From Patescibacteria group bacterium (GTDB lineage: Bacteria > Patescibacteriota > Minisyncoccia > Portnoybacterales > UBA2143): a stretch of 64,000 nt of DNA. How positions within the stretch are numbered: position 1 is the stretch's first letter; every line of letters starts with the position of its first letter. Location: the NCBI GenBank assembly GCA_018830295.1, contig JAHJSM010000001.1, positions 65,980 through 129,979 on the forward strand, given 5' to 3'. Shown in pieces: positions 4,497 to 23,178 of this stretch. The notes beneath the pieces are model-generated. The model was not told where the DNA came from, made no database searches, and worked only from the letters and a program-made list of their open reading frames with translations. Made by a program: the position numbers and the translations under genes.

Positions 4497-5816
4497 TTAC
4501 CTCATCATTCTGACCACTCTTCTTAAAATGGGAGGCAGGACTTTCTTTTTGTCGGTTGATATTTCCAATGTTAACCCCGCTAAAGCCAAAGGCGTAATAT
4601 TTTCAGGCCCCTCCAAAATATTTGTTTGGTCGGTTATGTTAATAATCTGGTCCGGCGTAATAAAATTAACTTGCGGCATTTGGCTAAACGGAAATTTTTT
4701 CAGCCACTCGTCGCTTGCCACTTTTTTGCTCAAAATATTTTTTATACCGCTCAATAAACTCCCTCCCCCACAAAGATAAATCGCGGACGGAAAATATTCG
4801 GTCTGACCAAATTCCTCCAAAACTATTTCCACGCCGCTCAACCATGTTTCTATGTCTTTTTTTAAAATTTGCCTGATTTTTCTCCGAACTCCTAAACTTA
4901 ATTTTTTTTGAGAATATCTGATTTTAACCTCTTCCGCTTCGGCGAAATTAAGACCTAAAGCCGACGATAGTCGTTTGGTAAATGTTCTTCCCGCCAAAGC
5001 AAAACTCTTAATTCCTTCCACTCTCCCTTGCCTTGCCAAAGCAACATCTGTCGTTCCTCCGCCGATATCAATAAAAATGGCGCCTGATTTTTGATTAAAT
5101 CCTGAAAGTTTGGTTAATGCGTAAGGCTCGGCCGCGACTGAAAGCAAATCCAAATTCAATTTTGAAGCGATACTCTCCAACGCCCGCAAATGAACCATGG
5201 GCGCATAAACATTAAAAATACTGATAAATATTTCTTTGCCTTGAAAATCAAGCGGGTTTGTCACTTGGTACCCGTCAATTCTAATTTCGGTAATTAAAGC
5301 GTTGACTAATCGTATCTCAATTTCCGAACGGCCCGTCTCCCAAGCCAGTTGCGCGCGAACCTGATTAAACGCCTTCCATTGCGCTTTTTGAATAATATTT
5401 TTAAGTTCGGATAAATCAATTTCTTCTTCTGGTTTTTCTCTTTGACAGACAAAATCTGTTGTGGCGCCTTTGATAAATTCTCCCGCCGCCCCGATGACCG
5501 CTTTTTTGGGCGTAATCCGCGCCATCTTCACAGCCCGATTAATCGCCCTTTGACACGAAGACGCAACACCCTCAATATCCGCCACTGCCCCAGCAAACAT
5601 ATGCCCCGATGACTGCTTCGCCCGCCCAACGCCGACGACAATCCCCTGGTCCTCCGTTTGGTCGTCAAAAAAACCGCTTTCAGCTCTAAAAATCACTGCT
5701 TTAACGAATTCCGTTCCAATATCCAAAGCCAGCAAATAGTCCTTCGCTCTCCTTTTTCCGCCCCACCTCCATAAATTATTTTTAAAAAATTTAATCAACG
5801 AACCCATTTCCCGCAT
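4497..5816 (-). CDS. ftsA: cell division protein FtsA-like (actin-fold ATPase, FtsA/PilM family)
   Basis: 439 aa. Motifs LALDIGTEFVKAVIF, VGVGRAKQSSGHMFAGAVADIEGVASSCQRAINRA, IDIGGGTTDVAL and LCGGGSLLSGI are present. Its length and extra subdomain fit FtsA better than PilM. Confidence 0.65.
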   Translation of the reverse strand: MREMGSLIKFFKNNLWRWGGKRRAKDYLLALDIGTEFVKAVIFRAESGFFDDQTEDQGIVVGVGRAKQSSGHMFAGAVADIEGVASSCQRAINRAVKMARITPKKAVIGAAGEFIKGATTDFVCQREKPEEEIDLSELKNIIQKAQWKAFNQVRAQLAWETGRSEIEIRLVNALITEIRIDGYQVTNPLDFQGKEIFISIFNVYAPMVHLRALESIASKLNLDLLSVAAEPYALTKLSGFNQKSGAIFIDIGGGTTDVALARQGRVEGIKSFALAGRTFTKRLSSALGLNFAEAEEVKIRYSQKKLSLGVRRKIRQILKKDIETWLSGVEIVLEEFGQTEYFPSAIYLCGGGSLLSGIKNILSKKVASDEWLKKFPFSQMPQVNFITPDQIINITDQTNILEGPENITPLALAGLTLEISTDKKKVLPPILRRVVRMMR

Positions 5817-5867: not shown

Positions 5868-5902
5868 GGGGACAGTCCCCATTCTGAATGGGGACTGTCC
5901 CC
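5868..5902. repeat. REP-B hairpin: GGGGACAGTCCCC-attctgaat-GGGGACTGTCCCC
   Basis: 13-14 bp perfect stem. It lies 3' of the minus-strand gene 5915..7321. Confidence 0.8.
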
Positions 5903-5914
5903 TATTATAATTTC

Positions 5915-7321
5915 TTACACTAGCGGTTCCATTTCCTCTATATTATCCTCCTTTTCTTTCGGCAGTTCCTCGTCTTTCAATTTCTCTTTTACGCTTTCCA
6001 AAGAAAGAGCGTATTTCTCGCGGCTTTGATTCATGATTTCCTTTTTGTAAGAAAGATGCCCCGACGGCAAAACCTTAAGCGTTTCGGCAGAGAAAGGATC
6101 AAACGCTTCGCCATCAATGGTCATTTTGATATAAAATTCCCGCGCGCCTAAATTAATCATGTCCTCCGCCTGAAAAATCGGCGTCATTTCCATGGCCAAT
6201 TTCGCGGCGTCATCTCCGCCCACTCTGAAAACAACAATTGTCCCGATATTCCCCAAAACAGTCGCCACAACTTGCTGTAATAATTGCGCCATATATTGAT
6301 GAGCGACCGTGATGCAAAGCCCGTATTTTCTTGATTCGGTAAATAAATTTTCAAAAGTCGTCGTAATTAAATTTTGAAACTCATCCACATAAAGATAAAA
6401 ATCTTTCCTCTTATCTTCCGGCATAGACGCCCTTGCCATGCACGCCTGATAAAGTTTAGTGATAAACATTGAACCAAAAAAACTGCTGTTTTCCTCGCCC
6501 AATTTACCTTTCGCTAAATTGATTAAAAGAATTTTCTTGTCGTTCATAATTTTCTCTAAATCAATTTTGTTTTCTTTCTGCCCAAAAATGCTGCGCAACA
6601 TCGGATTGGAAAGAAATTGGCTCAACTTATTAACCAAAGGAATAATCGCCTCCGTATCAAACTTCTCCGACCAGTCGGCGAACTCAACCGCCCAGAATCT
6701 CTTGACCATATCGTCTTCAATATAGTCAGTAACTTTTTGCCGGTATCGTCTGTCTGTAAGCATAGAAATCATTCCGCGCATCGTCGCGTCAGGGTAATCA
6801 AGTAAAGCCAAAACAGTAAATCTAAAAACATGTTCTAATCGCGGCGTCCAGTTCGCTCCGAATTGCCGCTCCAAAACTTCAATCAACCCTTGGGCGACTT
6901 GGTGTTTTAATTCTGGGACAACATTCAAAAGAGGATTAAAAGAAACGGGAAAATTAATATCCGACGGGTCAATCACAACAATATCATTGATTCTTTCCTT
7001 GGGGATAAAATCCAAAATATTTTCAATCAAATCACCGTGGGGGTCAATCAAACAAACGCCATGCCCATAAGCGATATCCTGTCGGATTAAAAGTTCCAAA
7101 AATTTGGTTTTTCCCACGCCGCTTTTCCCAATAGAATAAATATGCTGTCTCCGGTCCACCCGTTTAATGCCAAAGATAAATTTTTTCGTCTCTAAAGCGG
7201 CCTCGTAATTTGTCCGGCCAAAAAAAGAGCACTCTTTCGCGTCCACATCCGCCGCTCCGTAAACCGGCAATTCCGTCGGAGGAGGCGCGCACTTAATTTT
7301 CCGAATCTTTTCTCTGGTCAT
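5915..7321 (-). CDS. VirD4/TraG/TrwB-like P-loop ATPase (T4SS coupling-protein-like), paralog 2
   Basis: 468 aa. Walker A GKSGVGKT, DPHGD shortly after it, Walker B LYVDEFQN, and a C-terminal AHQYMAQL motif are present. It is paralogous to 10975..12639. Confidence 0.5.
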   Translation of the reverse strand: MTREKIRKIKCAPPPTELPVYGAADVDAKECSFFGRTNYEAALETKKFIFGIKRVDRRQHIYSIGKSGVGKTKFLELLIRQDIAYGHGVCLIDPHGDLIENILDFIPKERINDIVVIDPSDINFPVSFNPLLNVVPELKHQVAQGLIEVLERQFGANWTPRLEHVFRFTVLALLDYPDATMRGMISMLTDRRYRQKVTDYIEDDMVKRFWAVEFADWSEKFDTEAIIPLVNKLSQFLSNPMLRSIFGQKENKIDLEKIMNDKKILLINLAKGKLGEENSSFFGSMFITKLYQACMARASMPEDKRKDFYLYVDEFQNLITTTFENLFTESRKYGLCITVAHQYMAQLLQQVVATVLGNIGTIVVFRVGGDDAAKLAMEMTPIFQAEDMINLGAREFYIKMTIDGEAFDPFSAETLKVLPSGHLSYKKEIMNQSREKYALSLESVKEKLKDEELPKEKEDNIEEMEPLV

Positions 7322-7327
7322 ATTAGT

Positions 7328-7987
7328 TTAACATATATTATTTTTCGTAAGAATTTTTTTCGCGATTCTATTGATAACAGTCCCGACAAAACCAAATCTT
7401 TTGTCGCGGATATAAAAATATCCAAAAAATGAAATAACCAACGCGCCTCCGGCATTAACCATTAAATCCAACATTGTATCCACCAAGCCGGATTTTTGCA
7501 TATTTAATCCAAACATCATATCCGCGCCAAACTCCATCATTTCCCAAATTGTTCCCAAAGACAAAGCGAAACAAAATGAAAAAACGGCAATAGTAATAGG
7601 ACTCGCTTTTATTTTATACTGCTGATAAAGAATAAGGAGCACTAAAAATCCAGCAAATGCTATAACAGTGCTAGACAAAGCGTGCAAGGCGATATCCCAC
7701 CACCAAATTTTAGTATAATAATTACGCGCCTCGCCAAGAAAAATAGCTGCGTAAACAAAAACAGCCACAATAAATTCCAATTCAATCGGCAAGTGAATTT
7801 TATAGTTTCGTTGGATTAAAGCAGGCAAAAAAGTAATGAACAAAACAAGCAAACTCACAAACAAGACCGTCCAATTTTGGAAAATAACTGATTCCGCGAC
7901 AGCCAAAAGCAAAACCAATCTTATAAAATAAGATATCGTCAATTGAATTTTGTCTATAATATCAATGTCTTTAGGAAAAAACAACAT
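7328..7987 (-). CDS. polytopic integral membrane protein (5-6 TM), hypothetical
   Basis: 219 aa and hydrophobic throughout. It lies immediately upstream, in transcription order, of ATPase 5915..7321. Confidence 0.5.
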   Translation of the reverse strand: MLFFPKDIDIIDKIQLTISYFIRLVLLLAVAESVIFQNWTVLFVSLLVLFITFLPALIQRNYKIHLPIELEFIVAVFVYAAIFLGEARNYYTKIWWWDIALHALSSTVIAFAGFLVLLILYQQYKIKASPITIAVFSFCFALSLGTIWEMMEFGADMMFGLNMQKSGLVDTMLDLMVNAGGALVISFFGYFYIRDKRFGFVGTVINRIAKKILTKNNIC

Positions 7988-7992
7988 ATAAT

Positions 7993-9204
7993 TTATCCTA
8001 TCTCATCCTTAGTTAAAAATTCTCTGATATTCATCTGTTTAATTCCTTTATACTCGCCTTTATCTATCATTTCATCCATGGAAACCACTATTTTAGGACA
8101 ATTATCCGGAATTGCCAATAAATTACCGAATTCTCTTTCATAATTTTCTTCGGTAATTTTATAAGCGACCTGAATATACAATCGCTTATTATTTTTTTCG
8201 CAGACAAAATCAACTTCCTTATTGCCAAGCTGTCCAACTGTCACTTTACAGCCAATAATTTGCATATGCAGAAAGACCAAATTTTCCAATATCTTATTAA
8301 TATCGGGCTGTTTATACCCCGCGATTGAATGCCTTAAGCCGAGATCTTCAAAATAATATTTGTCGTTGATTTCAAAAATCTTTTTGCCTTGAATGTCCGA
8401 CCGAGGAACCTTAAAAACAAAAAACGCTTGCGTCAAAAAAGACAAATAATCCAAAACGATATTAGGCGAAATATCTGTTTTTTGCGATTTTATAAAATCG
8501 CTGATTTTCTTGGCTGAAACCAAACTGCCAGTATTGTCAGCCAAATATTCAACCAACCTTTCTAAAAAAGCGGCATTGCGAATTTTGTGCCTATTGACCA
8601 CATCCTTAAAAAGAATTGTGTTATAAACATTTCTTAAATAATCGTAAACTATTGAGTCCTCTAATTCTAAATGAATTAAATAAGGCAGCCCACCGTATTT
8701 TATATATTTTAAAAACGACTCCTGATTATCCGATAATTTATGAAAAAATAAAAATTCTAAATAAGACAAACCGAAAACTTTAAATTCAATATACCTGCCG
8801 CTTAAATATGTCGCTAATTCTCCTGAAAGCAAATTAGCATTGCTGCCCGTGCAATAAATATCATACTTGCCTCTGGCGTTAAGGTCTCTTAATGCCTTCT
8901 CAAACTGTTTAATATCCTGAACTTCATCAATAAATATATAATTTTTTCTTCTCGTTTGAGTATTTCGCTTAACAAAATCTATAAGATCTTTATAGTTTTT
9001 AATTTCGTCAAATTCATTAAGTTCTTTGTTGATATAAATAATATTGGCGTTTTTGTGATTTTTCTTAACTACATCCATAAGTTGAAAAAGAAGATAACTT
9101 TTACCCACTCTCCTTTGCCCAACAATAACCTTAATAAGCCCTTTGTCCATAAAGGGGGCAATTTTTTTTAAGTAATATTTTCTTTTAATATACTTTTTGA
9201 TCAT
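7993..9204 (-). CDS. AAA+ ATPase of the DUF4143/COG1373 family
   Basis: 403 aa. Walker A IVGQRRVGKSYLL and Walker B YIFIDEVQ are present, and the C-terminal region fits DUF4143. A second, divergent copy lies at 32290..33591. Confidence 0.6.
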   Translation of the reverse strand: MIKKYIKRKYYLKKIAPFMDKGLIKVIVGQRRVGKSYLLFQLMDVVKKNHKNANIIYINKELNEFDEIKNYKDLIDFVKRNTQTRRKNYIFIDEVQDIKQFEKALRDLNARGKYDIYCTGSNANLLSGELATYLSGRYIEFKVFGLSYLEFLFFHKLSDNQESFLKYIKYGGLPYLIHLELEDSIVYDYLRNVYNTILFKDVVNRHKIRNAAFLERLVEYLADNTGSLVSAKKISDFIKSQKTDISPNIVLDYLSFLTQAFFVFKVPRSDIQGKKIFEINDKYYFEDLGLRHSIAGYKQPDINKILENLVFLHMQIIGCKVTVGQLGNKEVDFVCEKNNKRLYIQVAYKITEENYEREFGNLLAIPDNCPKIVVSMDEMIDKGEYKGIKQMNIREFLTKDEIG

Positions 9205-9252
9205 AAGATTTTTTGCGAGATATACTTAAAACTTTCTCGTATTCACTCTATG

Positions 9253-9270
9253 TTTTAAGTATACTTAAAA
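9253..9270. promoter_or_regulatory. perfect 18 bp palindrome TTTTAAGTATACTTAAAA with an upstream half-site copy (9220-9236)
   Basis: The sequence is its own reverse complement. The half-site ATATACTTAAAACTTTC repeats 39 bp upstream. Both lie in the 85 bp gap upstream of the DUF4143 ATPase start. Confidence 0.45.
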
Positions 9271-9289
9271 CTTTTCAAATGTCAATATT

Positions 9290-10975
9290 CTACCCCACCT
9301 CTTTAATATAACATCTTTTACAATAAATCTTCAATTCTTTTTGCTTGACTGGCGGGTAGGAGGTCTGTATTTCTTCACCACATTTGTCGCATTTAGTTTT
9401 CCAAAGTTTTGAAGGATTTCTTTTTTGGAACCTTTCCAACATTCTTTGATAGGGGCTCTTGGTTGGGATAGGTAAATGATGCTTTCTGTAAAAATCTAAT
9501 TCTGGTTCAATCAGACGAAATGGCTTGCCGGTAATTTCGCAAACAATCGCTTCGGGGATATCTACTAAATCAATGGGTATTTTGGGCTCATTATACCACT
9601 GCCATCCATTTTTTAAAACCTCGCTTTTTTTCAACGGAAATTCTATCATCGCGTAAGTGTTATTGTATGGATACAAACTCATTGATAAAGGAAAAAACTC
9701 TCCATATTCCCCGCCTTCAAGCATTTTTGTCTTGATTTTGTCCAACAATTTCCAGTATTCTTCTTTTGAATATTTTTTATTAAAAATATGATATTTCTTG
9801 CCGCGAAGTCCAACACAGCCAAAACAATGCTGGCAATTATGGCAAGCAATACAATACTCCAAATCAAGCGACTCCCGAACAAAGAAAGCGAATTTTAGAT
9901 TACTGCTGTTGACCGCTTCAACCGCTTCATAAGACAAAGAAACATTCGGTCCAACATCCCAGAGATCCATGCAATCTTTCGTCCCCGAAACCACATCTAC
10001 GCCGTAGCGGACATTTTCAACCCCGTAATCATTTCTGAAAACTTGATAACAATTTTTTGAATGCCACAATTGGTCGCCGACGCAATTAATATTTCTGCTG
10101 TCAAAATACAAATTTTGTCTGACAGTTTTTTTGAGCAAATCCTCAAATCTTTTTTTGTATCGTTCTAAAATATTCCTATCGCCCAAATTAATTTCTCTAA
10201 TTTTTTCTAAATATTCTTTTTTAGAATATTGTTTATTAAAAAAGCAATATGATTTATGCCTTAAATGCGTACAACCAAAACAACTCTGGCAATTGCGACA
10301 ATCGTAAAGAAAATATCCGTCAACACATTCTTCAGATCCGTGGCAAAAATGGCAGTTGTAAGAAGCGTAACAGTCAATCAATTCGTAACAATTCTCGCAA
10401 TGCGATGTGTTTAACAAGTCAAGGCAATCCTTAGAAGCGCCGACCCAGTAGGCATAATGAACATTTTCAAGACGCGCGGCGATCGAGACCAAATAGCAAT
10501 TTTTCAAATTAACGCCAGCGATTGTATAGGGGCTGTTAATCACGCCCTTCCAATAGTGAGTAATCGCCGGATGAGGAACGGAAAGATTTAAATTATCAAA
10601 TTGGTTAAAAAACGATTTTGAAAAATCGTATTCTCGGGCGCAGTCCTCGCCGCCCCATTGGTCCGACCACCAATATTTAAGGTCATAAATTTTATGACGA
10701 CTCTCTGGATGGAGAGTAGAAATAATTTCTTTGCCTGTCCGCGCGTCTTGTTTTTTGTAAAATTTTAGAACGGTGTTATAAAATCCGAACCTCCTTTGTT
10801 TTCGGCATTCAGGACACAATTTCGGAGGAGGAACCAGAAGTTTTTTGTAAAGCGCGATATCCTCTTTAAATATCTCAAACTTATTCTCGCATTGCTGACA
10901 TCTTACCTTTTGCGGTATAAAATTTTCTAAAATCCCCCCAAGCGCCTTATCAAAATTTGGTGTTGTGAATAACAT
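9290..10975 (-). CDS. large Cys-rich protein with internal duplication and terminal zinc ribbons, hypothetical
   Basis: 561 aa. An N-terminal ribbon (CQQC...CPEC) and two repeated modules are present, ending ...CRNCQSCFGCTHLRHKSYCFFNKQYSKKEY and ...CIACHNCQHCFGCVGLRGKKYHIFNKKYSKEEY. The C-terminal ribbon is CDKCGEEIQ...IYCKRCY. Confidence 0.5.
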   Translation of the reverse strand: MLFTTPNFDKALGGILENFIPQKVRCQQCENKFEIFKEDIALYKKLLVPPPKLCPECRKQRRFGFYNTVLKFYKKQDARTGKEIISTLHPESRHKIYDLKYWWSDQWGGEDCAREYDFSKSFFNQFDNLNLSVPHPAITHYWKGVINSPYTIAGVNLKNCYLVSIAARLENVHYAYWVGASKDCLDLLNTSHCENCYELIDCYASYNCHFCHGSEECVDGYFLYDCRNCQSCFGCTHLRHKSYCFFNKQYSKKEYLEKIREINLGDRNILERYKKRFEDLLKKTVRQNLYFDSRNINCVGDQLWHSKNCYQVFRNDYGVENVRYGVDVVSGTKDCMDLWDVGPNVSLSYEAVEAVNSSNLKFAFFVRESLDLEYCIACHNCQHCFGCVGLRGKKYHIFNKKYSKEEYWKLLDKIKTKMLEGGEYGEFFPLSMSLYPYNNTYAMIEFPLKKSEVLKNGWQWYNEPKIPIDLVDIPEAIVCEITGKPFRLIEPELDFYRKHHLPIPTKSPYQRMLERFQKRNPSKLWKTKCDKCGEEIQTSYPPVKQKELKIYCKRCYIKEVG

Positions 10976-12639
10976 TATTTCTTCCCTATCGCCTCGTCTA
11001 ATGTTTTTCTTAAATCTTTGAGATCAACTTTCACTCTTTTTTTTCTAAACGGGGTCGCTTCTTTTTTAAGAGCGTCCTCCAAAGAAACAGTTTCAAACTC
11101 TATTCCCAATTCTTTCAATTCTGTTTGCTGTCCTTGTTGTCGCGCTGGCTGTTCTTTTGGCCGTTCCGCGACTTGCGCTGTTTTGGGCTTAAAACCAAGA
11201 GAAACATTCTCGCCCGCTCTCACTTTTTCAAAACATGTTTTGCAGTAAATAGGTCTCTTACCGTCCGGCTCAAAACCAACTTCCGTTTCCTGCCCACAAC
11301 TCCAACAAGCGGTCTTATGCTTCGCTAAAGACGGCTCTTTTGACTCCTCCGCCGCCATACCACTCCACTTAATGATTTTTTCCTCAACCTCCTCCCGCGA
11401 ATTGGCGTATCTCTCTCTTGAAACGCCAATAATTTTATCCCTTTGACCCTTAACCCCATCCATCTCCATCGGCGGCAAAGTAGTCGCCGAAAAAGGACGG
11501 CTGCTAACTCCGTCTATCATTAATTTTAAATAGATATTATAATTTTCTAAATTAACCAAATCCTGAATCAAAAATTCCGGCGTAAATTCTTTTTCCAAAA
11601 ATTCCGCGTCAGCCGCGCCAACCCGAAAAGAAATAAGCGTGCCGACATTGCCAAAAACAGCGTCTCTGACCGTCGTCGTCGCGTCGCCTACTAATTGCCC
11701 AATATATTGATGGGCGATCGTTAAATTCAAACGATACTTTCTCGCCTCCGATAAAATATTGGCGAACGAATCGGTTGCAAAGTTCTGGAATTCGTCAACA
11801 TAGAGATAAAAATCTTTTCGTTCTTCTTCTGGAATTCTCACCCTCTCCATCGCCGCCAACTGAATTTTAGTAATAATCATCGCCCCCAGAAGCGCCGAAT
11901 TATCTTCTCCAATTCTTCCCTTAGCGACATTAACCAAAAGAATTTTATTGCTGTTCATTATTTCCGCGATATTAATCGTGCTTTTTGACTGACCAACAAT
12001 ATTGCGAATTAAAGAAGTTGAAAGAAACTGCCCAACCTTATTTTGAATTGCGGAAATCGCTTCATTTCTAAACTGTTCTTTCCAGCTGGCGTATTCGTTA
12101 ATCCAAAAAGACCGGACAACTGGGTCTTTAACATTGTCTATGATTTTTTGACGGTAATCTTTGTCAACCAAAATTTTCATAATCCCCAAAAGGGTCGTCC
12201 CAGGAGTATCCAAAAGCGCCAAAATACAATTACTCAAAATGTATTCCATTCGCGCCGACCAAACATTAGCCCAAATCTTTGTGAAAATTCCCATCAAGTC
12301 AGAGGAGACCAAATGCTTGTATTTAGGGTCTGATACCTGCAGAACATTAAAGCCAACTGGATAATCCATGTCTTCTGGATTAAAATAAATCACATCATTG
12401 ATTCTATGAGATGGAATTTTATCAATGACTTCCTCAACAAATTCTCCGTGAGGGTCAACAATACAAACTCCGTGGCCATTCTTAATATCCTGCAAAGCCA
12501 TATTTTTCAAAAGAACGGTCTTACCCACGCCCGTTTTTCCGATAACATAAGTATGCTGCCGTCGGTCAGGCGTCTTAATCCCAAAAACCTTCTCCCCCCC
12601 CCGAAAATTTGTCTTAGCAAAAATGTTTATATTAGACAT
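10975..12639 (-). CDS. VirD4/TraG/TrwB-like P-loop ATPase with C-terminal zinc ribbon and basic tail, paralog 1
   Basis: 554 aa. Walker A GKTGVGKT, DPHGE, Walker B LYVDEFQN and AHQYIGQL are present. The C-terminus carries CWSCGQETEVGFEPDGKRPIYCKTCF followed by a K/R-rich tail. Confidence 0.5.
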   Translation of the reverse strand: MSNINIFAKTNFRGGEKVFGIKTPDRRQHTYVIGKTGVGKTVLLKNMALQDIKNGHGVCIVDPHGEFVEEVIDKIPSHRINDVIYFNPEDMDYPVGFNVLQVSDPKYKHLVSSDLMGIFTKIWANVWSARMEYILSNCILALLDTPGTTLLGIMKILVDKDYRQKIIDNVKDPVVRSFWINEYASWKEQFRNEAISAIQNKVGQFLSTSLIRNIVGQSKSTINIAEIMNSNKILLVNVAKGRIGEDNSALLGAMIITKIQLAAMERVRIPEEERKDFYLYVDEFQNFATDSFANILSEARKYRLNLTIAHQYIGQLVGDATTTVRDAVFGNVGTLISFRVGAADAEFLEKEFTPEFLIQDLVNLENYNIYLKLMIDGVSSRPFSATTLPPMEMDGVKGQRDKIIGVSRERYANSREEVEEKIIKWSGMAAEESKEPSLAKHKTACWSCGQETEVGFEPDGKRPIYCKTCFEKVRAGENVSLGFKPKTAQVAERPKEQPARQQGQQTELKELGIEFETVSLEDALKKEATPFRKKRVKVDLKDLRKTLDEAIGKK

Positions 12640-12648
12640 AAAATAAAA

Positions 12649-14055
12649 TTACCCAATTGGTAGTCCCTTGGGGGGCTCGGCCTTTTTCGCTTCAACCTTT
12701 GGCACCAAAGGCGCTTTAACCGAGAAACTTGGATAATGATAAATCGTCGCCAGTTCCTCTATGCTTAAAACAAATGGTTTGCTCCTGATAAAAAACCAAT
12801 TTAAAACAGGAAACCGCTCAAATAAAAGCGGTTTAAAATATGAAATCACCTCCGAGTGCTGAACAAAATCTCTTTTTTTGTAATCGGCCAAAACTCTTTT
12901 CTTGCGATACGCCTCTCTGATTTTTTTGAATTGAATCGCGTAATCAATTTTAGTGGTTATTTTGCTGTTGGGCTTAAAACCATTAAGATTTTGGCTAGCG
13001 AATTGCTTATAACATCCAAAAACCGCCGCGATATTGGCTGGCCTAAAAGCTTCCTTCGGCGCCAAATACAAAAACCTGATAATTGTTTCGTATCCGATTT
13101 TTGATATATTTTCCTCAATCGCGTTAATGACACCCTGCTCCGCCTTGGTCGTTATCATTGAAAAGGGCTGTGGCTTCTCTTCTTTCTTTTCGCCCGCGCT
13201 CTCTCCCTCGCCGCCGCTAACCATTTTATTAGCTACATCAACAACCGCATCTCTCCACGCGGAAACTTCTTTAATGATTAAACTCTCTTTCTTCTTTTCT
13301 TCCCTCCCAATGAGTTTATCGCGCAATTTTTCGCCTGTTTCTTTCCATTTATCATCCACAGGTCTAACTAATGTTTGAATCCAAATCTGCTCCCCGTCCG
13401 ATATCTTATTCATCACTTCCAACAAAGAAGACATTGGGTCAACTCTTTGCTCCTCCGCTTTGGCTTCTTTTTCAAAAGCGGGATAGGTTTTAATTGGATA
13501 AGCGTCCTCTTTGGTTAAAATAAGTTCCGTCCCCCAAAGATCATAATTCTTGTTGGGAATATCAGAAGGAACAGAATTAACATAATCGTCAGTTTGCCTA
13601 ATCTCGGCTTCTGGATATTGCGCGTAAATATGCGCTTCAACCATATCGCGAAACGACGCGATAACCCTAATTAAAAAATGAATTTCTCCGCCCAAACTCA
13701 CAATTTCCAAACTAAACCATTTCTGAAATTCGCCTTTGATCTGTTTCTCTCGCCAGTTGGGACCGCCTTGAATCGCGTGCATGCCCGCGAAAAATTGCTC
13801 CATCGCTTGGGGAGTTTTTTGAACCTCGCGGGGAGGTCTAACTTCCAATAAAACCCATTCTAATTTGTTAACAAAATTTTGTCTTTGATGTTTAAACCAT
13901 AAATCCCTGGCAAGAATCAGAAGAAACCAGGGAACATAAATCCACCAGAGAGATAATAAAAACCCTCCAATTAGATAAGCGCCATTTAAGACAGTTAAAG
14001 AAATTTCTAAATAATTAGGCATAATCGCCGTAAAACTACAACTACTTCGCCACAC
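12649..14055 (-). CDS. hypothetical membrane-anchored protein (N-terminal TM hairpin plus ~400 aa soluble domain)
   Basis: 468 aa. The N-terminal hydrophobic segments are GAYLIGGFLLSLWWIYVPWFLLILA. It overlaps the upstream gene by 14 nt. A later start at MPNYL (14022) is possible. I could not recognise a family. Confidence 0.45.
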   Translation of the reverse strand: MWRSSCSFTAIMPNYLEISLTVLNGAYLIGGFLLSLWWIYVPWFLLILARDLWFKHQRQNFVNKLEWVLLEVRPPREVQKTPQAMEQFFAGMHAIQGGPNWREKQIKGEFQKWFSLEIVSLGGEIHFLIRVIASFRDMVEAHIYAQYPEAEIRQTDDYVNSVPSDIPNKNYDLWGTELILTKEDAYPIKTYPAFEKEAKAEEQRVDPMSSLLEVMNKISDGEQIWIQTLVRPVDDKWKETGEKLRDKLIGREEKKKESLIIKEVSAWRDAVVDVANKMVSGGEGESAGEKKEEKPQPFSMITTKAEQGVINAIEENISKIGYETIIRFLYLAPKEAFRPANIAAVFGCYKQFASQNLNGFKPNSKITTKIDYAIQFKKIREAYRKKRVLADYKKRDFVQHSEVISYFKPLLFERFPVLNWFFIRSKPFVLSIEELATIYHYPSFSVKAPLVPKVEAKKAEPPKGLPIG

Positions 14056-15064
14056 TATAAATATCGCCCTCTTTAGTAAAAAGCTGTCTATTCTGAAGAT
14101 TGATTAAAACAGTGTTTTTCTTAACTAAACGACTTTTAAGAACCTCATTCAAAATATCCTCCTTAGCCAAAGGTCCTTTATCCTTTAATGTTTGAATAAT
14201 GACATCTTTAATCGTGCCTGGCTGATAACCCCACTCTTTCAAAGCATAAGTTCCGCGGCCAACTAAAATAAAGCGAGCATCTTTAATGAGTTCGTTATGA
14301 ACTGTCTGCGCTTGAGCAAGATTAGTCCCCAATTTCGCTTCGTTAATTAAGTCCGCAACTTCTCTAAAATGCAATGGTCGTTTTTGGTCTTTGAAAACAA
14401 TATAGGCCTTGTCTTTGGCGCCGCGTGGATTAATTTCAGGCCATTTGCTTAAACCAAATCGTCCAAAATTATTTTGACTGATTTGCTTAGTCGCGTCGAG
14501 ATAAGAGCATAACACCTTTTTGTCTATCTGCGCGTTTGCTTCTTTAGAAAAATCAATAATATTATTTAATAAAACTGTCTCTTTGTTCCCTTCTATTCTC
14601 TCAACTAAATAGTCAACCACTAATTGCGCTTGCGACAAAGCGTCTTTAGAATTAACCCAAAGAGAATAAAATTTATCCGATTCAACTAATCGCTGATACG
14701 GATCGCCTAACGAAAGAATAAAAAAAACAGCTCCCTTAGAAGAATCGGGGGTCTCGCATCCAGACAAAGCGGAAAGCAACCGTTCTTCGCGAACGACTCT
14801 TCCTTCGCGATTAAAAAAAGCGTCAATTGAACGAAAGGCCGGCTTAAAAATATTGATTGAGGCGGGTCTTCTCAAGTCCGAAAGAGTGGCCTCTTCTATT
14901 TGGCGAACTCGCTCCCTGGTAATTCCGTAGTTCTTGCCAATACTTTCAAGCGTCTGTCGTTGTCCATCGTCCAAGCCAAAACGCAAACGAACAATCTCGC
15001 GCGTCCGATCATTAGAAACACCCTTTAAGGCGTCAAAGACCAATTTTTCATATTTAATGCTCAT
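14042..15064 (-). CDS. sigma-70 region 4 domain protein with C-terminal HARE-HTH-like domains
   Basis: 340 aa. REIVRLRFGLDDGQRQTLESIGKNYGITRERVRQIEEATLSDLRRP matches sigma70 region 4.2. The C-terminal DARFILVGRGTYALKEWGY and FGRFGLSKW resemble the HARE-HTH (RNAP delta N-domain) signature. Confidence 0.55.
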   Translation of the reverse strand: MSIKYEKLVFDALKGVSNDRTREIVRLRFGLDDGQRQTLESIGKNYGITRERVRQIEEATLSDLRRPASINIFKPAFRSIDAFFNREGRVVREERLLSALSGCETPDSSKGAVFFILSLGDPYQRLVESDKFYSLWVNSKDALSQAQLVVDYLVERIEGNKETVLLNNIIDFSKEANAQIDKKVLCSYLDATKQISQNNFGRFGLSKWPEINPRGAKDKAYIVFKDQKRPLHFREVADLINEAKLGTNLAQAQTVHNELIKDARFILVGRGTYALKEWGYQPGTIKDVIIQTLKDKGPLAKEDILNEVLKSRLVKKNTVLINLQNRQLFTKEGDIYSVAK

Positions 15065-15112: not shown

Positions 15113-15973
15113 TTACCTCCCCTTCCAAGAAACAATTAGCGAACTCGTGATAAAGATAGAAGAATATGTGCCGACAATAATGCCGACGATTAAAGCCAAC
15201 GAGAAATATTTAATACTTTCGCCTCCCAAGAAAAATATCGCCGACAAAACAATCAGAGTCGTCAGAGAAGTGTTCAAGCATCGCGTCAAACTTTGGTTGA
15301 CGCTTTGGTCAATTGTTTCTCCAAAATTATTCCAGTCGGTCTTCAAAAGATTCTCTCTAGCGCGGTCAAAAATAACTATACTATTATTAACAGAATAACC
15401 TAAGATTGTCAAGAAGGCGGCGACAAAAGGCAGCCCGATTTCAATTTGATTGAAATGCCCTAAGAGCGCGAAGAAGCCAACTGTGATAAAAACATCATGG
15501 AAAAGCGCGATAATCGCCACAATGGCGTACTGCCAAGAAGCGACTGGCTGGGAAACTTTTCGGAAGGCCCACGCAATGTAAACAATAATCGCGAAGAGCG
15601 CGACCACAATCGCCCAAAGCGCTTTACTTTTTAGTTCATCGCCAATGAGCGGCCCGATTGATTCAAATCTATCTTCTTTTGGGCTGCCTAATTTCTTGAG
15701 AATTTCCTGATGGGTCTCTTCATCAATTTCCCGAAGGCGCAAAATGACACCTCGTTCCCCTGTTGGTTGGATATTAATATCGGATATCTCGGCTAATTTA
15801 TCCTGAATTTCTTGGTTGCTCAACCGCGTCTCGGAAAATTCAACTTCCATCAATGTTCCGCCCGTAAAGTCAATTCCCAATTTCAAACCACAAAAAATCA
15901 AACTCGCCAAACTAACCAACATCAAAATGATAGACACAGAAAAATAAATTTTACGATATTTAATGATTTTCAT
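15113..15973 (-). CDS. secF: protein-export membrane protein SecF
   Basis: The start is taken at MKIIKYRKIYFSVSIILMLVSL (ATG at 15971-15973), just after the secD stop at 15984. The GIDFTGGT motif and multiple TM segments are present. The ORF-track N-terminal extension to 16024 overlaps secD and is unlikely. Confidence 0.8.
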   Translation of the reverse strand: MKIIKYRKIYFSVSIILMLVSLASLIFCGLKLGIDFTGGTLMEVEFSETRLSNQEIQDKLAEISDINIQPTGERGVILRLREIDEETHQEILKKLGSPKEDRFESIGPLIGDELKSKALWAIVVALFAIIVYIAWAFRKVSQPVASWQYAIVAIIALFHDVFITVGFFALLGHFNQIEIGLPFVAAFLTILGYSVNNSIVIFDRARENLLKTDWNNFGETIDQSVNQSLTRCLNTSLTTLIVLSAIFFLGGESIKYFSLALIVGIIVGTYSSIFITSSLIVSWKGR

Positions 15974-15983
15974 AATATTAAGG

Positions 15984-17432
15984 TTATCCCCAGATCTTTC
16001 TCTTCCCCTCCAATCGCCCCCCAATAAACAACCTTAAAAAACTCTTCGTCACAACAATCGCGCTAAACATACTGATAACAACCCCAATTCCTAATGTCAA
16101 AGCAAACCCCTTCACTAATCCTGTAGCGAAAATATATAAAATCAAACAAGTAATAATTGTTGAAATATTGCCGTCACGAATAGCCGACCAAGCGCGGCGG
16201 AAGCCCTCGTCAATACTGCCTCCCAGACCTTTGCCTTTTCTAAATTCTTCCTTAAATCTTTCAAATATTAAAATATTCGCGTCAACCGCCATTCCGATTG
16301 ATAAAATAAAGCCAGCGATGCCCGCCAAAGAAAGCGTGACTGGAATTAGTTTAAAAACAGCCAAAACCAAAGCGACATAAATAATTAAAGAGAAACAAGA
16401 AATCAAACCAAGTAAACGGTAATAAAAAATCATAAAAAGCAAAACCGCCAAAAATCCCCAAATCGCCGCTTGAAGCGATTTGTCCAAAGAAACCTGCCCC
16501 AAGCTCGCGCCGACCGTTTGCTGGCTAACTAAATTTATCGGTACGGGCAAAGCGCCCGCGTTCAATCGCTGGACCAATGTTTTCGCTTCTTCTAATGTAA
16601 AGTCACCCGTAATTTGCGCCTTACCTCCAGAAATCGCCTCTTGAACCATCGGCGCGCTAATCGCTTCTCCGTCCAAATAAATAGCCATTCTTTTCCCGAC
16701 ATTCTTTCTTGTTAAGTCCTCAAACATTTTGCTTCCCTCGTCGTCAAACTCCAAACCAATTTGCGATTGATATGTTTGCTGGTCAAACTGCATTTGAGCG
16801 CCCTCTAAATATCGCCCCGTTAAAAGCGTCGGCTTGAAGTATGGGTCCTCAAATAAAAGCGCTTGTTCCTCTTCGGTTATTTCCGTCCCCGCGTTAATTT
16901 TCGCGACAATTTCTTTTTGAGCGGCTAAAATATTTTCTGTTTCTGAACTATCTTTTTCCTCGCGAAAATCCAAAAAAGGCGTCTGACCAATCATTTCAAT
17001 CGCCTGATGAGTGTCCTTGATTCCCGCCAATTCAACAATTAAACGGTATCTGTCGCCCACCTTATTAATCTGAACGACCGGCTCAGCAACGCCAAAAAGA
17101 TTAACCCGCCTTTCAATCACATCGCGCGCGCCTTCCATTGAATCCATTCTGTCACCCGAAACGACATTGGAAAAATCCGCCTCGTAAATCAAATGCGCTC
17201 CACCCATCAAATCAAGTCCGAGATGAAATGGTTTATTATAAAAATGAGGCAGGATTGTTGTCCCCGCCTGATAATTAACCCAATCAGCGCCCTTGTCCCA
17301 AACATTGGGATAAATAAAAAAGCCCGCCAAAGCGCCCATAATTAAAATCAAAAAAACAGTCCAATATATTCTCCTTGAACCAATTTTTTTTCTCCGCGGT
17401 TTTTCGCTTGTATTTTTAACAAAAATCCCCAT
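15984..17432 (-). CDS. secD: protein-export membrane protein SecD
   Basis: 482 aa. An N-terminal TM segment, a periplasmic domain and C-terminal 6-TM RND-like region are present (LGLDLMGG, AGIAGFILSIGMAVDANILIFER). Confidence 0.85.
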   Translation of the reverse strand: MGIFVKNTSEKPRRKKIGSRRIYWTVFLILIMGALAGFFIYPNVWDKGADWVNYQAGTTILPHFYNKPFHLGLDLMGGAHLIYEADFSNVVSGDRMDSMEGARDVIERRVNLFGVAEPVVQINKVGDRYRLIVELAGIKDTHQAIEMIGQTPFLDFREEKDSSETENILAAQKEIVAKINAGTEITEEEQALLFEDPYFKPTLLTGRYLEGAQMQFDQQTYQSQIGLEFDDEGSKMFEDLTRKNVGKRMAIYLDGEAISAPMVQEAISGGKAQITGDFTLEEAKTLVQRLNAGALPVPINLVSQQTVGASLGQVSLDKSLQAAIWGFLAVLLFMIFYYRLLGLISCFSLIIYVALVLAVFKLIPVTLSLAGIAGFILSIGMAVDANILIFERFKEEFRKGKGLGGSIDEGFRRAWSAIRDGNISTIITCLILYIFATGLVKGFALTLGIGVVISMFSAIVVTKSFLRLFIGGRLEGKRKIWG

Positions 17433-17494: not shown

Positions 17495-17525
17495 GGGGGC
17501 TGCCCCCGCAACGGGGGCAGCCCCC
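17495..17525. repeat. REP-B variant hairpin GGGGGCTGCCCCC-gcaac-GGGGGCAGCCCCC, terminator-like
   Basis: 13 bp stem. On the minus strand a run of U follows it (plus strand aaaaaaa at 17488-17494). It lies 3' of gene 17529..17852. Confidence 0.7.
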
Positions 17526-22797: not shown

Positions 22798-23178
22798 TTA
22801 TTTCAAGTTTTTTAAATATTCCTTTATTCTCTCCCGATTCTCGTTCTCCTTGTTTCCTTTGAAATATATCTCAATAAATTCAATCCCAATCATTTCTATT
22901 GTTTGATGATTTTCAATATAGGCGTAAATAATTCTTAAATCCTTTTTCTTTAAACTTCTGCAAAAAAATCTTGCTTTAATAATGTAAATAAAATCATTTT
23001 TCGCAATTACATTAAAATGTTTGCCAATCCCCAAGGGCGCCGCGCTCAAAACCTTTTTAAATTCGGTTAAATCATCATCCGTGGTCTTGAATTTTTTAGA
23101 TAATTTCTTAAAATCTTTTTGAAATTCCTCCGTATTTTTAAAGTTCATCGTCATAGTTTCTGACCGAGTGGTCATCAT
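22798..23178 (-). CDS. RelE/YafQ-like toxin paired with the Panacea-domain antitoxin
   Basis: 126 aa. The C-terminal KKDLRIIYAYIENHQTIEMIGIEFIEIY resembles the RelE/YafQ core. It overlaps the upstream antitoxin gene. The likely start is an internal Met (MNFKN, about 23148). Confidence 0.45.
   Translation of the reverse strand: MMTTRSETMTMNFKNTEEFQKDFKKLSKKFKTTDDDLTEFKKVLSAAPLGIGKHFNVIAKNDFIYIIKARFFCRSLKKKDLRIIYAYIENHQTIEMIGIEFIEIYFKGNKENENRERIKEYLKNLK

Follow-up and report, generated by a model that had tools for sequence, protein, structure and literature searches.

A conserved split, membrane-anchored VirD4-like ATPase cassette in Patescibacteria, a candidate stand-alone nucleic-acid translocase

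Introduction

What are two ATPases resembling the coupling proteins of type IV secretion systems (T4SS) doing in a bacterial chromosome region where the rest of such a system is not in evidence? The question is raised by a 64,000-nucleotide stretch of a Patescibacteria contig (JAHJSM010000001.1, positions 65,980 to 129,979), hereafter the window. An initial annotation, made from the sequence alone, had described duplicated modules of a membrane protein plus a VirD4/TraG-like ATPase, accompanied by a Cys-rich and a helix-turn-helix (HTH) protein, and had suggested a stand-alone translocation system. All seven minus-strand open reading frames on which it was based are present (Table 1). As argued below, the region consists of a core cassette, a second motor paralog beside the Cys-rich protein Cys561, and two unrelated inserted genes encoding a DUF4143 ATPase and a DUF2238/YjdF-family protein.

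Table 1. Coordinates of the features discussed, given as positions in the window
Feature	Position	Strand	Description
HTH protein	14042-15064	minus	340 aa; Sigma70_r4 + HARE-HTH; first gene of cassette
DUF8128 (PF26449) membrane anchor	12649-14055	minus	468 aa; N-terminal helical hairpin + alpha/beta domain
ATPase1	10975-12639	minus	554 aa; soluble T4CP/VirD4-family P-loop motor; third gene of cassette
Walker A of ATPase1	12517-12540	minus	GKTGVGKT, residues 34-41
Zinc ribbon zf_Tbcl_2 of ATPase1	11221-11319	minus	CxxC-x17-CxxC, residues 441-473
Cys561	9290-10975	minus	Cys-rich 561 aa protein, 31 Cys
AAA_14/DUF4143 ATPase	7993-9204	minus	Pfam; PADLOC candidate PDC-S01
DUF2238/YjdF-family (PF09997) polytopic membrane protein	7328-7987	minus	219 aa
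ATPase2	5915-7321	minus	468 aa; T4CP-like motor, ATPase1 paralog
secD-secF	15113-17432	minus	upstream of cassette; context only
Hairpin, perfect 16-bp stem	5868-5902		terminator-like scan; between ATPase2 and ftsA-like gene

Results

ATPase1 and ATPase2 share 45% identity over 422 aa (E 2e-139) and are true paralogs. The motifs quoted in the initial annotation can be read in both, namely Walker A (GKSGVGKT in ATPase2), DPHGE in ATPase1 and DPHGD in ATPase2, Walker B YLYVDEFQN (residues 278-286 of ATPase1) and AHQY, and the Walker A of ATPase1 is kept in 67 orthologues. Comparison with HMMs, as had been proposed, bore out their placement with VirD4/TraG/TrwB rather than with VirB4 or HerA. The Pfam model TrwB_AAD_bind was the best ATPase-domain match of both (ATPase1, 4.7e-12, 45.9 bits against a cutoff of 20.5; ATPase2, 2.1e-11), exceeding the gathering score in each case and lying four to five orders of magnitude ahead of DUF87 (7.8e-8 and 5e-6, respectively), whereas VirB4 models reached just 1e-4 to 1e-2 against the two proteins; ATPase1 also gave weaker matches to T4SS-DNA_transf (3e-6) and TraG-D_C (1.5e-5). 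FtsK_SpoIIIE was not returned in the Pfam search of either protein. TrwB was the best PDB sequence match of ATPase1. Among NCBIfam models, ATPase1 matched SXT_TraD (1.2e-14) and VirD4-like CD1115 (2.6e-10) and ATPase2 matched the latter (3.6e-15), but their 40-56 bits are far below the TraD/VirD4 equivalog cut-offs of 250-650 bits, and the ATPases are therefore placed in a separate lineage.

The C-terminal zinc ribbon and basic tail previously ascribed to ATPase1 were likewise recovered, the former by PF23477 (zf_Tbcl_2, 4.3e-13) and TIGR04272 (7.9e-13), the latter as a Lys/Arg-rich extension; the zinc ribbon columns are filled in ~70-80% of the ATPase1 orthologues. ATPase2 lacks the zinc ribbon, any transmembrane (TM) segment and the DUF8128 domain while retaining a 'PPxxLP' linker (residues 13-19), and represents a soluble paralog type.

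The first gene of the cassette encodes the sigma70-region-4/HARE-HTH protein of the earlier description (Sigma70_r4, 1.7e-12; HARE-HTH, 9.6e-10), with an N-terminal domain resembling region 4 of primary sigma factors, for which SigA/RpoD region 4 provided the closest PDB sequences (E 4e-15), and the HARE-HTH at the C-terminus. In the structure model of DUF8128, two N-terminal helices (residues 15-64) are read as a putative transmembrane hairpin, and the cytoplasmic alpha/beta domain resembles the fold of the VirB4 N-terminal domain. The true start of this protein is probably the ATG at 14022 (M12). The supposed duplication of membrane protein plus ATPase holds for the ATPases and fails for the membrane proteins, as DUF8128 and the DUF2238 protein are unrelated (BLASTP E 5).

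Several observations connect DUF8128 and ATPase1 beyond their adjacency. Within the window, 9 nt lie between the stop codon of DUF8128 and the start codon of ATPase1, and the two reading frames coincide. The N-terminal half of the phage protein family phrog_5156 (824 positions) corresponds to DUF8128 (E 3e-16) and its C-terminal half to the ATPase, ATPase1 matching positions 402-817 (E 3e-62) and ATPase2 giving E 2e-59. One Patescibacteria locus (L004) carries both domains in a single 810-aa gene. Among the loci centred on the Cys561 family, L117, L119 and L153 contain fused chains of about 747 aa; in L117, L119/L120 and L153, three distinct ATPases are joined to a TM-less DUF8128-like domain by a linker that aligns with residues 10-26 of ATPase2. 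Furthermore, hhalign supports homology to DUF8128 for the N-terminus of Bacillus phage G gp156 (probability 97%, E 6e-11). Because of phrog_5156, these fusions, the gp156 N-terminus and the 9-nt same-frame gap, the two genes are taken to encode the halves of a single split protein. The gp156 chain joins a DUF8128-like N-terminal portion to the ATPase portion seen in the cassette, but is fused. Identity to the phage homologues is 22-29%, and their neighbours differ from those of the cassette: gp156 adjoins a VirB4/TraG-P-loop protein, and SPO1 gp27.4, a match to the ATPase part whose length would leave room for an N-terminal extension, adjoins a Replic_Relax-family (relaxase-family) nickase.

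Conservation of the neighbourhood was assessed in 80 GTDB species loci centred on DUF8128. The order HTH protein, DUF8128, ATPase1 recurs, with a co-oriented HTH gene immediately preceding DUF8128 in 73/75 species loci and an ATPase gene following it in 67/71; 76 of 77 ATPases in these loci are nearer to ATPase1 than to ATPase2. DUF8128 is thus a genuine, near-obligate partner of ATPase1, and it is highly probable that the core cassette, with the architecture described, is conserved across many Patescibacteria lineages. By tblastn synteny, secD-secF lies immediately upstream in 41/61 loci; in L001-L004 it also carries Pfam labels.

The remaining genes, which the initial annotation had grouped with these three, are not conserved with them. 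The DUF4143 ATPase was found in 0/80 related loci; it matches PADLOC PDC-S01 (1.4e-147), has a GC content of 0.33 against ~0.40 in the flanks, a promoter-like site of its own (9285-9258) and a paralog at 32290-33591, and is an unrelated insertion. The DUF2238 protein, assigned through a precomputed PF09997 match on a 100%-identical protein, was also absent from all 80 loci and is possibly inserted as well. Its homologues occur in DPANN archaea, Deltaproteobacteria and Methanococcoides, and no T4CP-like gene was present near those in L005-L007. As a membrane partner of ATPase2 it was rejected on both counts. A Cys561-like gene occurs in 1/45 core loci, and Cys561 was accordingly dropped as a core cassette member. 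The hairpin downstream of ATPase2 is a possible end of the transcription unit.

The start of the Cys561 gene shares 1 nt with the stop of ATPase1. Cys561 has N- and C-terminal zinc ribbons flanking a beta-solenoid-like core and ends in a Lys-rich CxxC-x17-CxxC module. It belongs to a large Patescibacteria family forming tandem arrays beside ATPase2-type genes, the paralogs being diverged and devoid of a signal peptide or hydrophobic segment. A T4CP-like gene is present in 21/79 metagenome loci centred on this family; 20 of these 21 have it no more than 1 kb from a Cys paralog, and 20 of 21 have it on the strand of the nearest one. ATPase genes amount to 5.8 per 100 kb of flank in these loci, ~20-fold above a rough background of ~0.2-0.3 per 100 kb derived from an estimated ~2 copies per 0.7-1 Mb genome, and 18 of 28 are closer to ATPase2. 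The Cys-rich family is clearly linked to the ATPase2-type paralog. Since 44/45 core loci lack a Cys561-like gene and no ATPase accompanies many of the Cys arrays, the core branch and the Cys/ATPase2 branch may be functionally separate.

Discussion

The best overall explanation of the locus, to which we assign a probability of about 0.55, is a split, membrane-anchored ATPase cassette of the VirB4/VirD4 superfamily acting as a stand-alone nucleic-acid translocase. DUF8128 would anchor ATPase1 at the cytoplasmic membrane by way of the segment corresponding to the covalent linker of the fused homologues. The motor would oligomerise as do other FtsK/HerA/VirB4/VirD4 ATPases and drive ATP-dependent movement of a polymer, most likely nucleic acid, at this membrane with no VirB channel of its own. 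Selection or loading of the substrate, or control of the operon, would fall to the HTH protein, although it might just be a transcription factor retained in synteny. The ATPase2-type motors would act on the Cys-rich proteins, or be targeted by them, as clients or adaptors. Nucleic acid is hinted at by the Replic_Relax neighbour in SPO1, the VirB4/TraG-P-loop neighbour of gp156, the conserved HTH protein, and the zinc ribbon with its basic tail. Independence from a T4SS is suggested by a Pfam scan of 37 of the 50 open reading frames of at least 150 aa in the window, which detected neither T4SS channel genes nor a relaxase, in keeping with the initial view that other T4SS components are lacking, and by the genomic survey discussed below. 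While a stand-alone translocation system is a reasonable inference, nucleic-acid translocation independent of a T4SS is put forward tentatively.

Known systems resemble the cassette in part. The VirD4/TraG/TraD/TrwB coupling proteins (PF10412, PF02534, PF12696) provide the best-matching P-loop motor for both ATPases, the Pfam alignment running from Walker A through the all-alpha domain region to the TraG-D_C part. Here, however, the ATPase chain has no N-terminal TM domain, the anchor being a separate protein with a VirB4-N-terminal-domain-like fold, ATPase1 carries a C-terminal treble-clef zinc ribbon, and the genes are chromosomal and syntenic with secDF, with neither relaxase nor VirB genes nearby. 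VirB4/TrwK and the VirB3-VirB4 fusions likewise combine a membrane-associated N-terminal domain with an FtsK/HerA-superfamily ATPase, and the fused forms of the cassette (about 750-825 aa) are of VirB4 size. In contrast to VirB4, the motor half fits T4CP models 6-10 orders of magnitude better than VirB4 models and gives no CagE_TrbE_VirB match, the protein is divided between two genes in the window, VirB3, VirB6 and VirB8 neighbours are absent at the cassette, and a separate, bona fide VirB4 clade is described for Patescibacteria by Quinonero-Coronel et al. (2025; PMC12102498). EccE/EccC of ESX type VII secretion is more distant, its match being much weaker than that to VirB4, its ATPase family different and other ESX components absent.

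The ATPases could instead be the missing coupling proteins of the T4SS of Patescibacteria, encoded at a distance from its other genes, with DUF8128 docking the motor at the VirB channel, as the VirB4 N-terminal domain does on VirB3/VirB8, and the Cys-rich arrays serving as effectors whose basic zinc-ribbon C-termini would mediate recruitment. The best matches being T4CP HMMs, the fold of DUF8128, the terminal Lys-rich module of Cys561 and the diverged tandem Cys paralogs beside ATPase2-type genes, which in our reading might be expected of effector sets, all agree with this. Nevertheless, we consider it unlikely, as the core cassette is syntenic with secDF and not with T4SS genes. To our knowledge, tightly folded zinc proteins would also be awkward T4SS cargo. 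The genomic survey of Quinonero-Coronel et al. (2025) bears on both sides: t4cp genes are often far from virB4, which would suit distal coupling proteins, but VirD4-type homologues occur in 2,918 of 3,035 Patescibacteria genomes (96%) against 2,417 with VirB4, and just 148 of 5,713 t4cp genes lie near virB4 (PMC12102498). Tn-seq data cited there indicate that the t4cp of S. epibionticum is dispensable whereas its T4SS is essential, and no recognisable coupling protein was seen in that T4SS (Wang et al., 2023).

An FtsK/SpoIIIE-like DNA pump for chromosome segregation or division, guided by a sequence-specific HTH protein much as FtsK is by its gamma domain, would account for the near-universal, chromosomal, housekeeping-like conservation and for the membrane anchor together with an HTH protein. 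Pointing the same way, an ftsA-like gene follows at a distance of 3.5-8 kb in the window and in several loci (among them L009, L011, L012, L024 and L077). This reading is improbable, since ftsA is nearby in a minority of loci, FtsK_SpoIIIE is absent from the Pfam matches, and an ftsK gene is annotated in TM7x, and thus in at least one Patescibacterium (TM7x_00370; PMC10768705). The dispensability of the t4cp homologue in S. epibionticum (cited in PMC12102498) also weighs, if that gene is of the DUF8128-linked type, against a central housekeeping function, in this lineage at any rate.

From the secA-secD-secF synteny, an accessory protein-export motor working with the Sec machinery could be envisaged, and this synteny could indeed reflect a protein-export role: besides secD-secF, secA lies not far off, both in the window (24020-26572) and in L001 and L004, and the genes are co-directional and closely packed. 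The synteny is, however, missing in a third of the loci, and nucleic acid is favoured by the HTH protein, the zinc ribbon and the linkage to a relaxase-family gene in a phage. We know of no homologue in the T4CP-like ATPase superfamily that acts with SecYEG, and hold this explanation to be very improbable.

Least probable of all is that the region represents the remains of a mobile element (ICE or prophage) or an anti-phage defence island, with the ATPases as leftovers or defence NTPases. PADLOC mad8 (1e-15) and weak HerA matches, the match of the DUF4143 gene to the defence candidate PDC-S01, the low GC around that gene, AbiEii downstream of the cassette in L001-L003 and the fused homologue in phage G can be cited for it. 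Against it, the trio keeps its synteny with secDF in dozens of lineages at candidate-phylum level, the inserted look is limited to the DUF4143 and possibly the DUF2238 gene, no integrase, relaxase or flanking repeats were found at the locus and no tRNA genes in the window, and DUF8128 is nearly absent from viruses (2.9 million viral contigs gave one fragmentary match and 50,697 phage genomes gave none). The denial of a conjugative element in the initial annotation is upheld by the scanned open reading frames and by this synteny.

Returning to the stand-alone translocase, its ATPases are almost certainly the same genes as the orphan T4CP homologues reported by Quinonero-Coronel et al. (2025). 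Relative to the available sections of that paper, the DUF8128 partner and the HTH-DUF8128-ATPase-secDF synteny are new, as are the occurrence of both split and fused forms, the distinction of two paralog types and the link to Cys-rich arrays.

A string of seven minus-strand genes with two ATPases

Seven ORFs follow one another on the minus strand between positions 5915 and 15064 of the window, all in the same direction and separated by very short spacers (see table), and every domain and motif that the initial annotation had listed for this stretch was found in the sequence by ORF translation and Pfam analysis. For the gene of the 468-aa membrane protein, the GTG at 14055 is probably too far upstream to be the start and the ATG at 14022 is likelier, because the homologues are 455-458 aa long and align from about residue 12; with this ATG as the start, there is therefore no overlap with the HTH gene. 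Two perfect G+C-rich hairpins, one with a 16-bp stem after ATPase2 and one with a 14-bp stem and a T-run upstream of secD, flank the secDF-to-ATPase2 string and may represent the limits of a transcription unit.

Positions of the features discussed (strand in brackets)
Feature	Position	Remarks
HTH protein	14042-15064 (-)	Sigma-region-4/HARE-HTH
DUF8128 protein	12649-14055 (-)	468 aa; 14-nt overlap with HTH gene if GTG start used
ATPase1	10975-12639 (-)	554 aa; 9-nt spacer to DUF8128
Cys561	9290-10975 (-)	561 aa, Cys-rich; 1-nt overlap with ATPase1
DUF4143 ATPase	7993-9204 (-)	85-nt spacer to Cys561
DUF2238/YjdF protein	7328-7987 (-)	219 aa; 5-nt spacer to DUF4143
ATPase2	5915-7321 (-)	468 aa; 6-nt spacer to DUF2238
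secD-secF	15113-17432	Upstream of the seven-ORF string
secA	24020-26572	Further upstream than secD-secF
ftsA-like gene	4497-5816	Downstream of the string
GlxA-barrel protein gene		Downstream of the string
Hairpin after ATPase2	5868-5902	
Hairpin upstream of secD	17495-17525	
Promoter-like site	9285-9258	TTGACA-16-TATACT
AAA_14/DUF4143 paralog	32290-33591 (+)	
B12-binding radical SAM paralogs (six)	34508-35920, 46822-48255, 50534-51955, 53246-54682, 54689-56104, 61394-62776	
Other radical SAM genes (three)	40357-41442, 56111-57193, 58150-59235	SPASM domain in the first
SocA/Panacea-HTH_3 fusion	23138-23923 (-)	
DUF3800 protein	1634-2440 (-)	
ORFs without Pfam family at the thresholds used	43714-45735 (-), 29061-30824 (-), 62834-63952 (-), 17901-18917 (-)	673, 587, 372 and 338 aa

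Both ATPases are related to type IV coupling proteins

In Pfam, TrwB_AAD_bind was the top ATPase-domain model for ATPase1 (4.7e-12, 45.9 bits) as well as for ATPase2 (2.1e-11, 43.8 bits), in both cases above the gathering score of 20.5 bits; T4SS-DNA_transf and TraG-D_C also exceeded the cutoff, and DUF87/HerA passed its own, though its E-values were 4-5 orders of magnitude worse than those of TrwB_AAD_bind. The NCBIfam ranking placed TraD and VirD4-like models at the top (1e-14 to 1e-15) and VirB4 models at the bottom (1e-4 to 1e-2), TIGR00929 giving E 0.009 and 14 bits against a cutoff of 643; the Pfam model AAA_10 gave 17.3 bits against 27.5, and CagE_TrbE_VirB was not matched in Pfam or NCBIfam. 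The closest solved structure by sequence was TrwB. The proposal that these ATPases are VirD4-like rather than members of the HerA or VirB4 families withstood the refutation test named with it, as models of type IV coupling proteins (T4CPs) scored best for both.

Neither protein reached an equivalog or subfamily cutoff of a TraD or VirD4 model in NCBIfam, the scores being 53.7 bits against 366 for SXT_TraD, 39.7 and 55.8 against 250 for conju_CD1115 and 36-46 against 648 for TOL_TraD. ATPase1 and ATPase2 are 45% identical over 422 residues, and in both the Walker A and B motifs are intact, Walker A starting at residue 34 in ATPase1 and at about residue 64 in ATPase2. No transmembrane segment was detected in either (19-mer Kyte-Doolittle maxima of 1.48 and 1.75 versus 1.93-2.67 in the membrane proteins), in contrast to canonical T4CPs, which carry an N-terminal transmembrane domain in the same chain, and the anchor of ATPase1 would be supplied in trans by DUF8128. 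The TrwB_AAD_bind alignment covers profile positions 14-311 of 387, a range that includes the all-alpha region, and ATPase1 has in addition a zinc ribbon scoring above cutoff with zf_Tbcl_2 (PF23477; 49.2 bits versus 27) and TIGR04272 (47.9 versus 36). Judged from these sequence comparisons, the two ATPases probably constitute a lineage of their own, set apart from ordinary T4CPs.

DUF8128 has a VirB4-N-terminal-domain-like fold and is fused to the ATPase in other genomes

The 468-aa membrane protein was assigned to DUF8128 by the precomputed PF26449 label that is carried by the 99%-identical P0001 and, among the 120 homologues listed, by 118. This protein, the 219-aa membrane protein and Cys561 were matched by no model in the local Pfam and NCBIfam scans, and the names DUF8128 and DUF2238 were taken solely from precomputed labels of homologues. 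The AlphaFold model of DUF8128 (pLDDT 79, pTM 0.75) starts with two helices at residues 15-35 and 37-64, which are read as a predicted membrane hairpin, followed by alpha/beta domains. When this model was used in Foldseek, the top 13 matches were all chains of TrwK, the VirB4 of type IV secretion systems (T4SS), and the fold corresponds to that of the VirB4 N-terminal domain. Searches of PDB-chain sequences with DUF8128 and Cys561 returned noise alone (uL4, E 0.018; LIM/RUN proteins, E > 0.1). In a library of 1.84 billion proteins, clustering at 50% identity divides the DUF8128 family into 3,318 clusters, and a profile search of the 1.84 billion representatives yielded, among the matches listed, only close relatives of the split form; as it stopped short of VirB4, DUF8128 and VirB4 are not bridged at the sequence level. 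A literature search found no mention of DUF8128.

Comparison with longer proteins indicated how DUF8128 and ATPase1 are related. DUF8128 matches positions 65-311 and the ATPases match positions 388-817 of phrog_5156 (824 positions); a fused 810-aa gene with both Pfam domains is present in one retrieved locus (L004), and in L117, L119/L120 and L153 the two are joined in ORFs of about 747 aa. By hhalign, the N-terminus of gp156 (825 aa) of Bacillus phage G is a homologue of DUF8128 (probability 97%, E 6e-11). The junction of the fused proteins reads '...SDPPQDLPH...GVTNY...', the C-terminus of DUF8128 '...EPPKGLPIG*', the N-terminus of ATPase1 'MSNINIFAKTNF' and that of ATPase2 '...APPPTELPV...GRTNY', and from the comparison of these junctions the split is located in the linker, with ATPase2 corresponding to the motor half with the linker retained. 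DUF8128 and ATPase1 thus appear to be the split form of a single protein that is fused in other genomes, including that of a Bacillus phage. The stop codon (TAA) of DUF8128 and the ATG of ATPase1 share a reading frame and are separated by 9 nt (12640-12651), which is consistent with gene fission in the linker and may be a coincidence; read-through would restore the fused form. Programmed read-through of this TAA is unsupported, since the spacing or overlap between DUF8128 and the ATPase gene differs among orthologues.

In phage G, the gene for gp156, a fused DUF8128-like and T4CP-like ATPase protein, adjoins gp155, which resembles VirB4/TraG P-loop proteins (L171, 88999-96111). In SPO1, gp27.4, which matches the ATPase part, adjoins gp27.3, a 'replication initiation by nicking' protein of the Replic_Relax family, and the partition protein gp27.9 lies four small genes upstream (L172, 89981-97102). 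No match was obtained by tblastn with DUF8128 against 50,697 phage genomes, and a viral-contig scan gave one fragmentary match.

The conserved core comprises the HTH, DUF8128 and ATPase1 genes

When one genome per GTDB species was scanned with a DUF8128 alignment as query, relatives were found in at least 586 genomes, the lineages including Azam-, Portnoy-, Terry-, Yanofsky-, Moran-, Sung-, Niyogi-, Magasanik-, Nealson-, Kerfeld-, Doudna- and Wolfebacteria. Synteny was determined by tblastn of the window proteins on the best 80 of these loci, with the testable loci as denominators. A T4CP-like ATPase gene lay directly downstream of DUF8128 on the same strand in 67 of 71 loci (L015, L044, L054 and L059 lacking it, with three true exceptions and one scaffold gap), the sigma-r4/HARE-HTH gene directly upstream in 73/75, and secF upstream in 41/61. 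The order secA/secD/secF, HTH, DUF8128, zinc-ribbon ATPase was also seen in independent contigs by precomputed Pfam labels. In the HTH protein, the N-terminal domain is closely related to region 4 of primary sigma factors (E 4e-15 against SigA structures); a literature search for HARE-HTH together with sigma found nothing relevant.

A Cys561-like gene was located downstream of DUF8128 in only 1/45 loci, and neither DUF4143 nor DUF2238 occurred anywhere in the locus (0/80 each). The boundaries of the system are redrawn with HTH, DUF8128 and ATPase1 as the core, ATPase2 and Cys561 as an accessory branch and DUF4143 and DUF2238 as passengers. The duplication of membrane-protein plus ATPase modules suggested at the outset had to be abandoned: the 468-aa and 219-aa membrane proteins show no similarity and DUF2238 is absent from the related loci. 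The 219-aa protein belongs to DUF2238/YjdF by the precomputed PF09997 label of the 100%-identical P0121 and of all 120 homologues listed, with no match in the local scan at E <= 0.01; the family is also found in DPANN archaea, Deltaproteobacteria and Methanococcoides, and no T4CP-like neighbour was present beside the homologues examined in other genomes.

The DUF4143 gene looks like an insertion. It was ruled out as a part of the system by its absence from the 80 loci, by a near-consensus promoter-like site just upstream of it, by a dip in GC (0.33 versus about 0.40) and by a paralog elsewhere in the window, the two AAA_14/DUF4143 genes being 29% identical and lying within 25 kb of each other. 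It matches the PADLOC candidate PDC-S01 at 1e-147. AbiEii or tRNA-synthetase genes occupy the site 3' of ATPase1 in other genomes, which marks it as a variable spot.

The ATPase2 branch is associated with a large Cys-rich family

Cys561 contains 31 cysteines and no hydrophobic segment. Its homologues, about 577 aa long, number more than 3,900; all source-named matches among the 120 listed are from Patescibacteria, without a Pfam family. Its scores with zf_Tbcl_2 and TIGR04272 (20.1 and 17.9 bits) are under the cutoff, and a relationship to the CxxC-x17-CxxC family is only likely. Tandem arrays of diverged paralogs are formed by this family, with eight members at 29-48% pairwise identity in L089 (1-15734) and six in L113; across L089, L113, L170 and L117 the arrays hold 6 to 9 or more paralogs of about 560-610 aa with 29-62% pairwise identity. 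The family looks like a large uncharacterised gene-family expansion of Patescibacteria, and a literature search for Cys-rich CPR paralogs found nothing relevant.

A T4CP-like ATPase was encoded in 21 of 79 Cys-centred metagenome loci; in 20 of the 21 a Cys paralog was no more than 1 kb away, and in 20 of the 21 the ATPase gene and its closest Cys paralog shared a strand. This corresponds to an ATPase-gene density of 5.8 per 100 kb of Cys-centred flanks versus a rough background of about 0.2-0.3, our own estimate, which assumes about two copies in a genome of 0.7-1 Mb. Eighteen of 28 ATPases from Cys-centred loci are closer to ATPase2, and 76 of 77 from DUF8128-centred loci closer to ATPase1. 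The window order HTH, DUF8128, ATPase, Cys recurs in four loci (L099, L157, L165 and L169), and in L009, a 60%-identity relative, ATPase1 is followed by an ATPase2-like gene and Cys561. On these sequence and synteny data the Cys-rich protein stands outside the core as part of a real, recurrent accessory association.

Other genes in the window

Positions 30882-63952 form a glycan-biosynthesis island of low GC content (about 0.30-0.34), in which radical SAM genes are unusually numerous and interspersed with Bac_transf, GT2 and GT4 glycosyltransferase, flippase, LPG_synthase_TM and NTP_transferase-HAD genes. The SocA/Panacea-domain antitoxin-HTH_3 fusion and the DUF3800 gene are small accessory genes of conflict type scattered among housekeeping genes. 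None of the four Pfam-less ORFs resembled a protein of the cassette region by tblastn.

Discussion

The cassette described here is a new architectural variant in the VirB4/VirD4 superfamily, near-universal in a major bacterial radiation. It pairs a VirB3/VirB4-N-terminal-domain-like anchor (DUF8128) with a VirD4-like motor (ATPase1), a pairing that canonical T4SS ATPases lack. Its proteins may assemble into a membrane-tethered oligomeric translocase working without a VirB channel of its own, for which nucleic acid would be the most likely substrate because of the ancestry of the family and the conservation of the HTH partner; such a substrate would be favoured further by the basic tail and zinc ribbon of ATPase1 and by the phage neighbours, the Replic_Relax nickase of SPO1 and the VirB4/TraG-like ATPase of phage G. 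Pfam detected no relaxase and no T4SS channel gene (VirB4/B6/B8) among the 37 window ORFs scanned, in agreement with the earlier view that this is not a conjugative element.

We assign a low probability of roughly 0.15 to two related and more far-reaching readings. In one, the cassette would be a Patescibacteria-specific, channel-independent, membrane-anchored pump for nucleic acids; it would represent an early-branching or hybrid VirB4/VirD4 lineage, and might drive import or handling of host-derived DNA or RNA needed by nucleotide-auxotrophic epibionts. In the other, the ATPase2 branch would recruit the tandem Cys-rich beta-solenoid/zinc proteins, which would be a new family of exported effectors.

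The main rival explanation is that the ATPases are the distal coupling proteins of a T4SS, with the Cys-rich arrays as their effectors. The T4SS of S. epibionticum has no recognisable coupling protein or relaxase (Wang et al., 2023), and the available text of PMC12102498 reports that its T4CP homologue is non-essential and its T4SS essential, and that only 148 of 5,713 t4cp genes in Patescibacteria lie near virB4. Weaker rivals are an FtsK-like pump, FtsK_SpoIIIE giving no Pfam match to either ATPase at E <= 0.01, and a motor adjunct to Sec, genes of which lie upstream. A defence island or mobile element is unlikely because of the chromosomal synteny. The ATPases match PADLOC mad8 at 1e-15 and 2e-12, a single-gene similarity, but no other MADS or HerA-partner genes were found by PADLOC and the HerA matches were 1e-7 or weaker. 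As for a complete PADLOC system (MADS mad8, HerA-type or PDC-S01), single-gene similarities alone were found.

Patescibacteria represent a substantial part of bacterial diversity, and their hosts supply nucleotides, lipids and amino acids. According to the available part of PMC12102498, VirD4-type T4CP homologues (5,713 genes) occur in 2,918 of 3,035 Patescibacteria genomes (about 96%) and VirB4 in 2,417, each genome has about two orphan homologues of coupling proteins, counted without functional context, and their exaptation 'cannot be ruled out'. Orphan T4CP ATPases were thus already known; that part of the source does not seem to cover their partners, their architecture or their division into two branches. 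Added here are a fixed ATPase partner, DUF8128, with a membrane anchor and a VirB4-N-terminal-domain-like fold; the conserved HTH companion and secDF synteny; the split and fused relation, which extends to Bacillus phages, in one of them beside a relaxase-type nickase; and a second branch of paralogs that is linked with large arrays of an uncharacterised Cys-rich family. Together they suggest a third architectural lineage next to VirB4 and VirD4, and make what was an oddity of annotation accessible to concrete experiments with genetically tractable Saccharibacteria models. If true, either the pump or the effector reading would give a role to genes present in about 96% of Patescibacteria genomes and would bear on how CPR bacteria obtain host macromolecules, host-RNA uptake having been reported in a 2026 preprint (10.64898/2026.06.21.733656).
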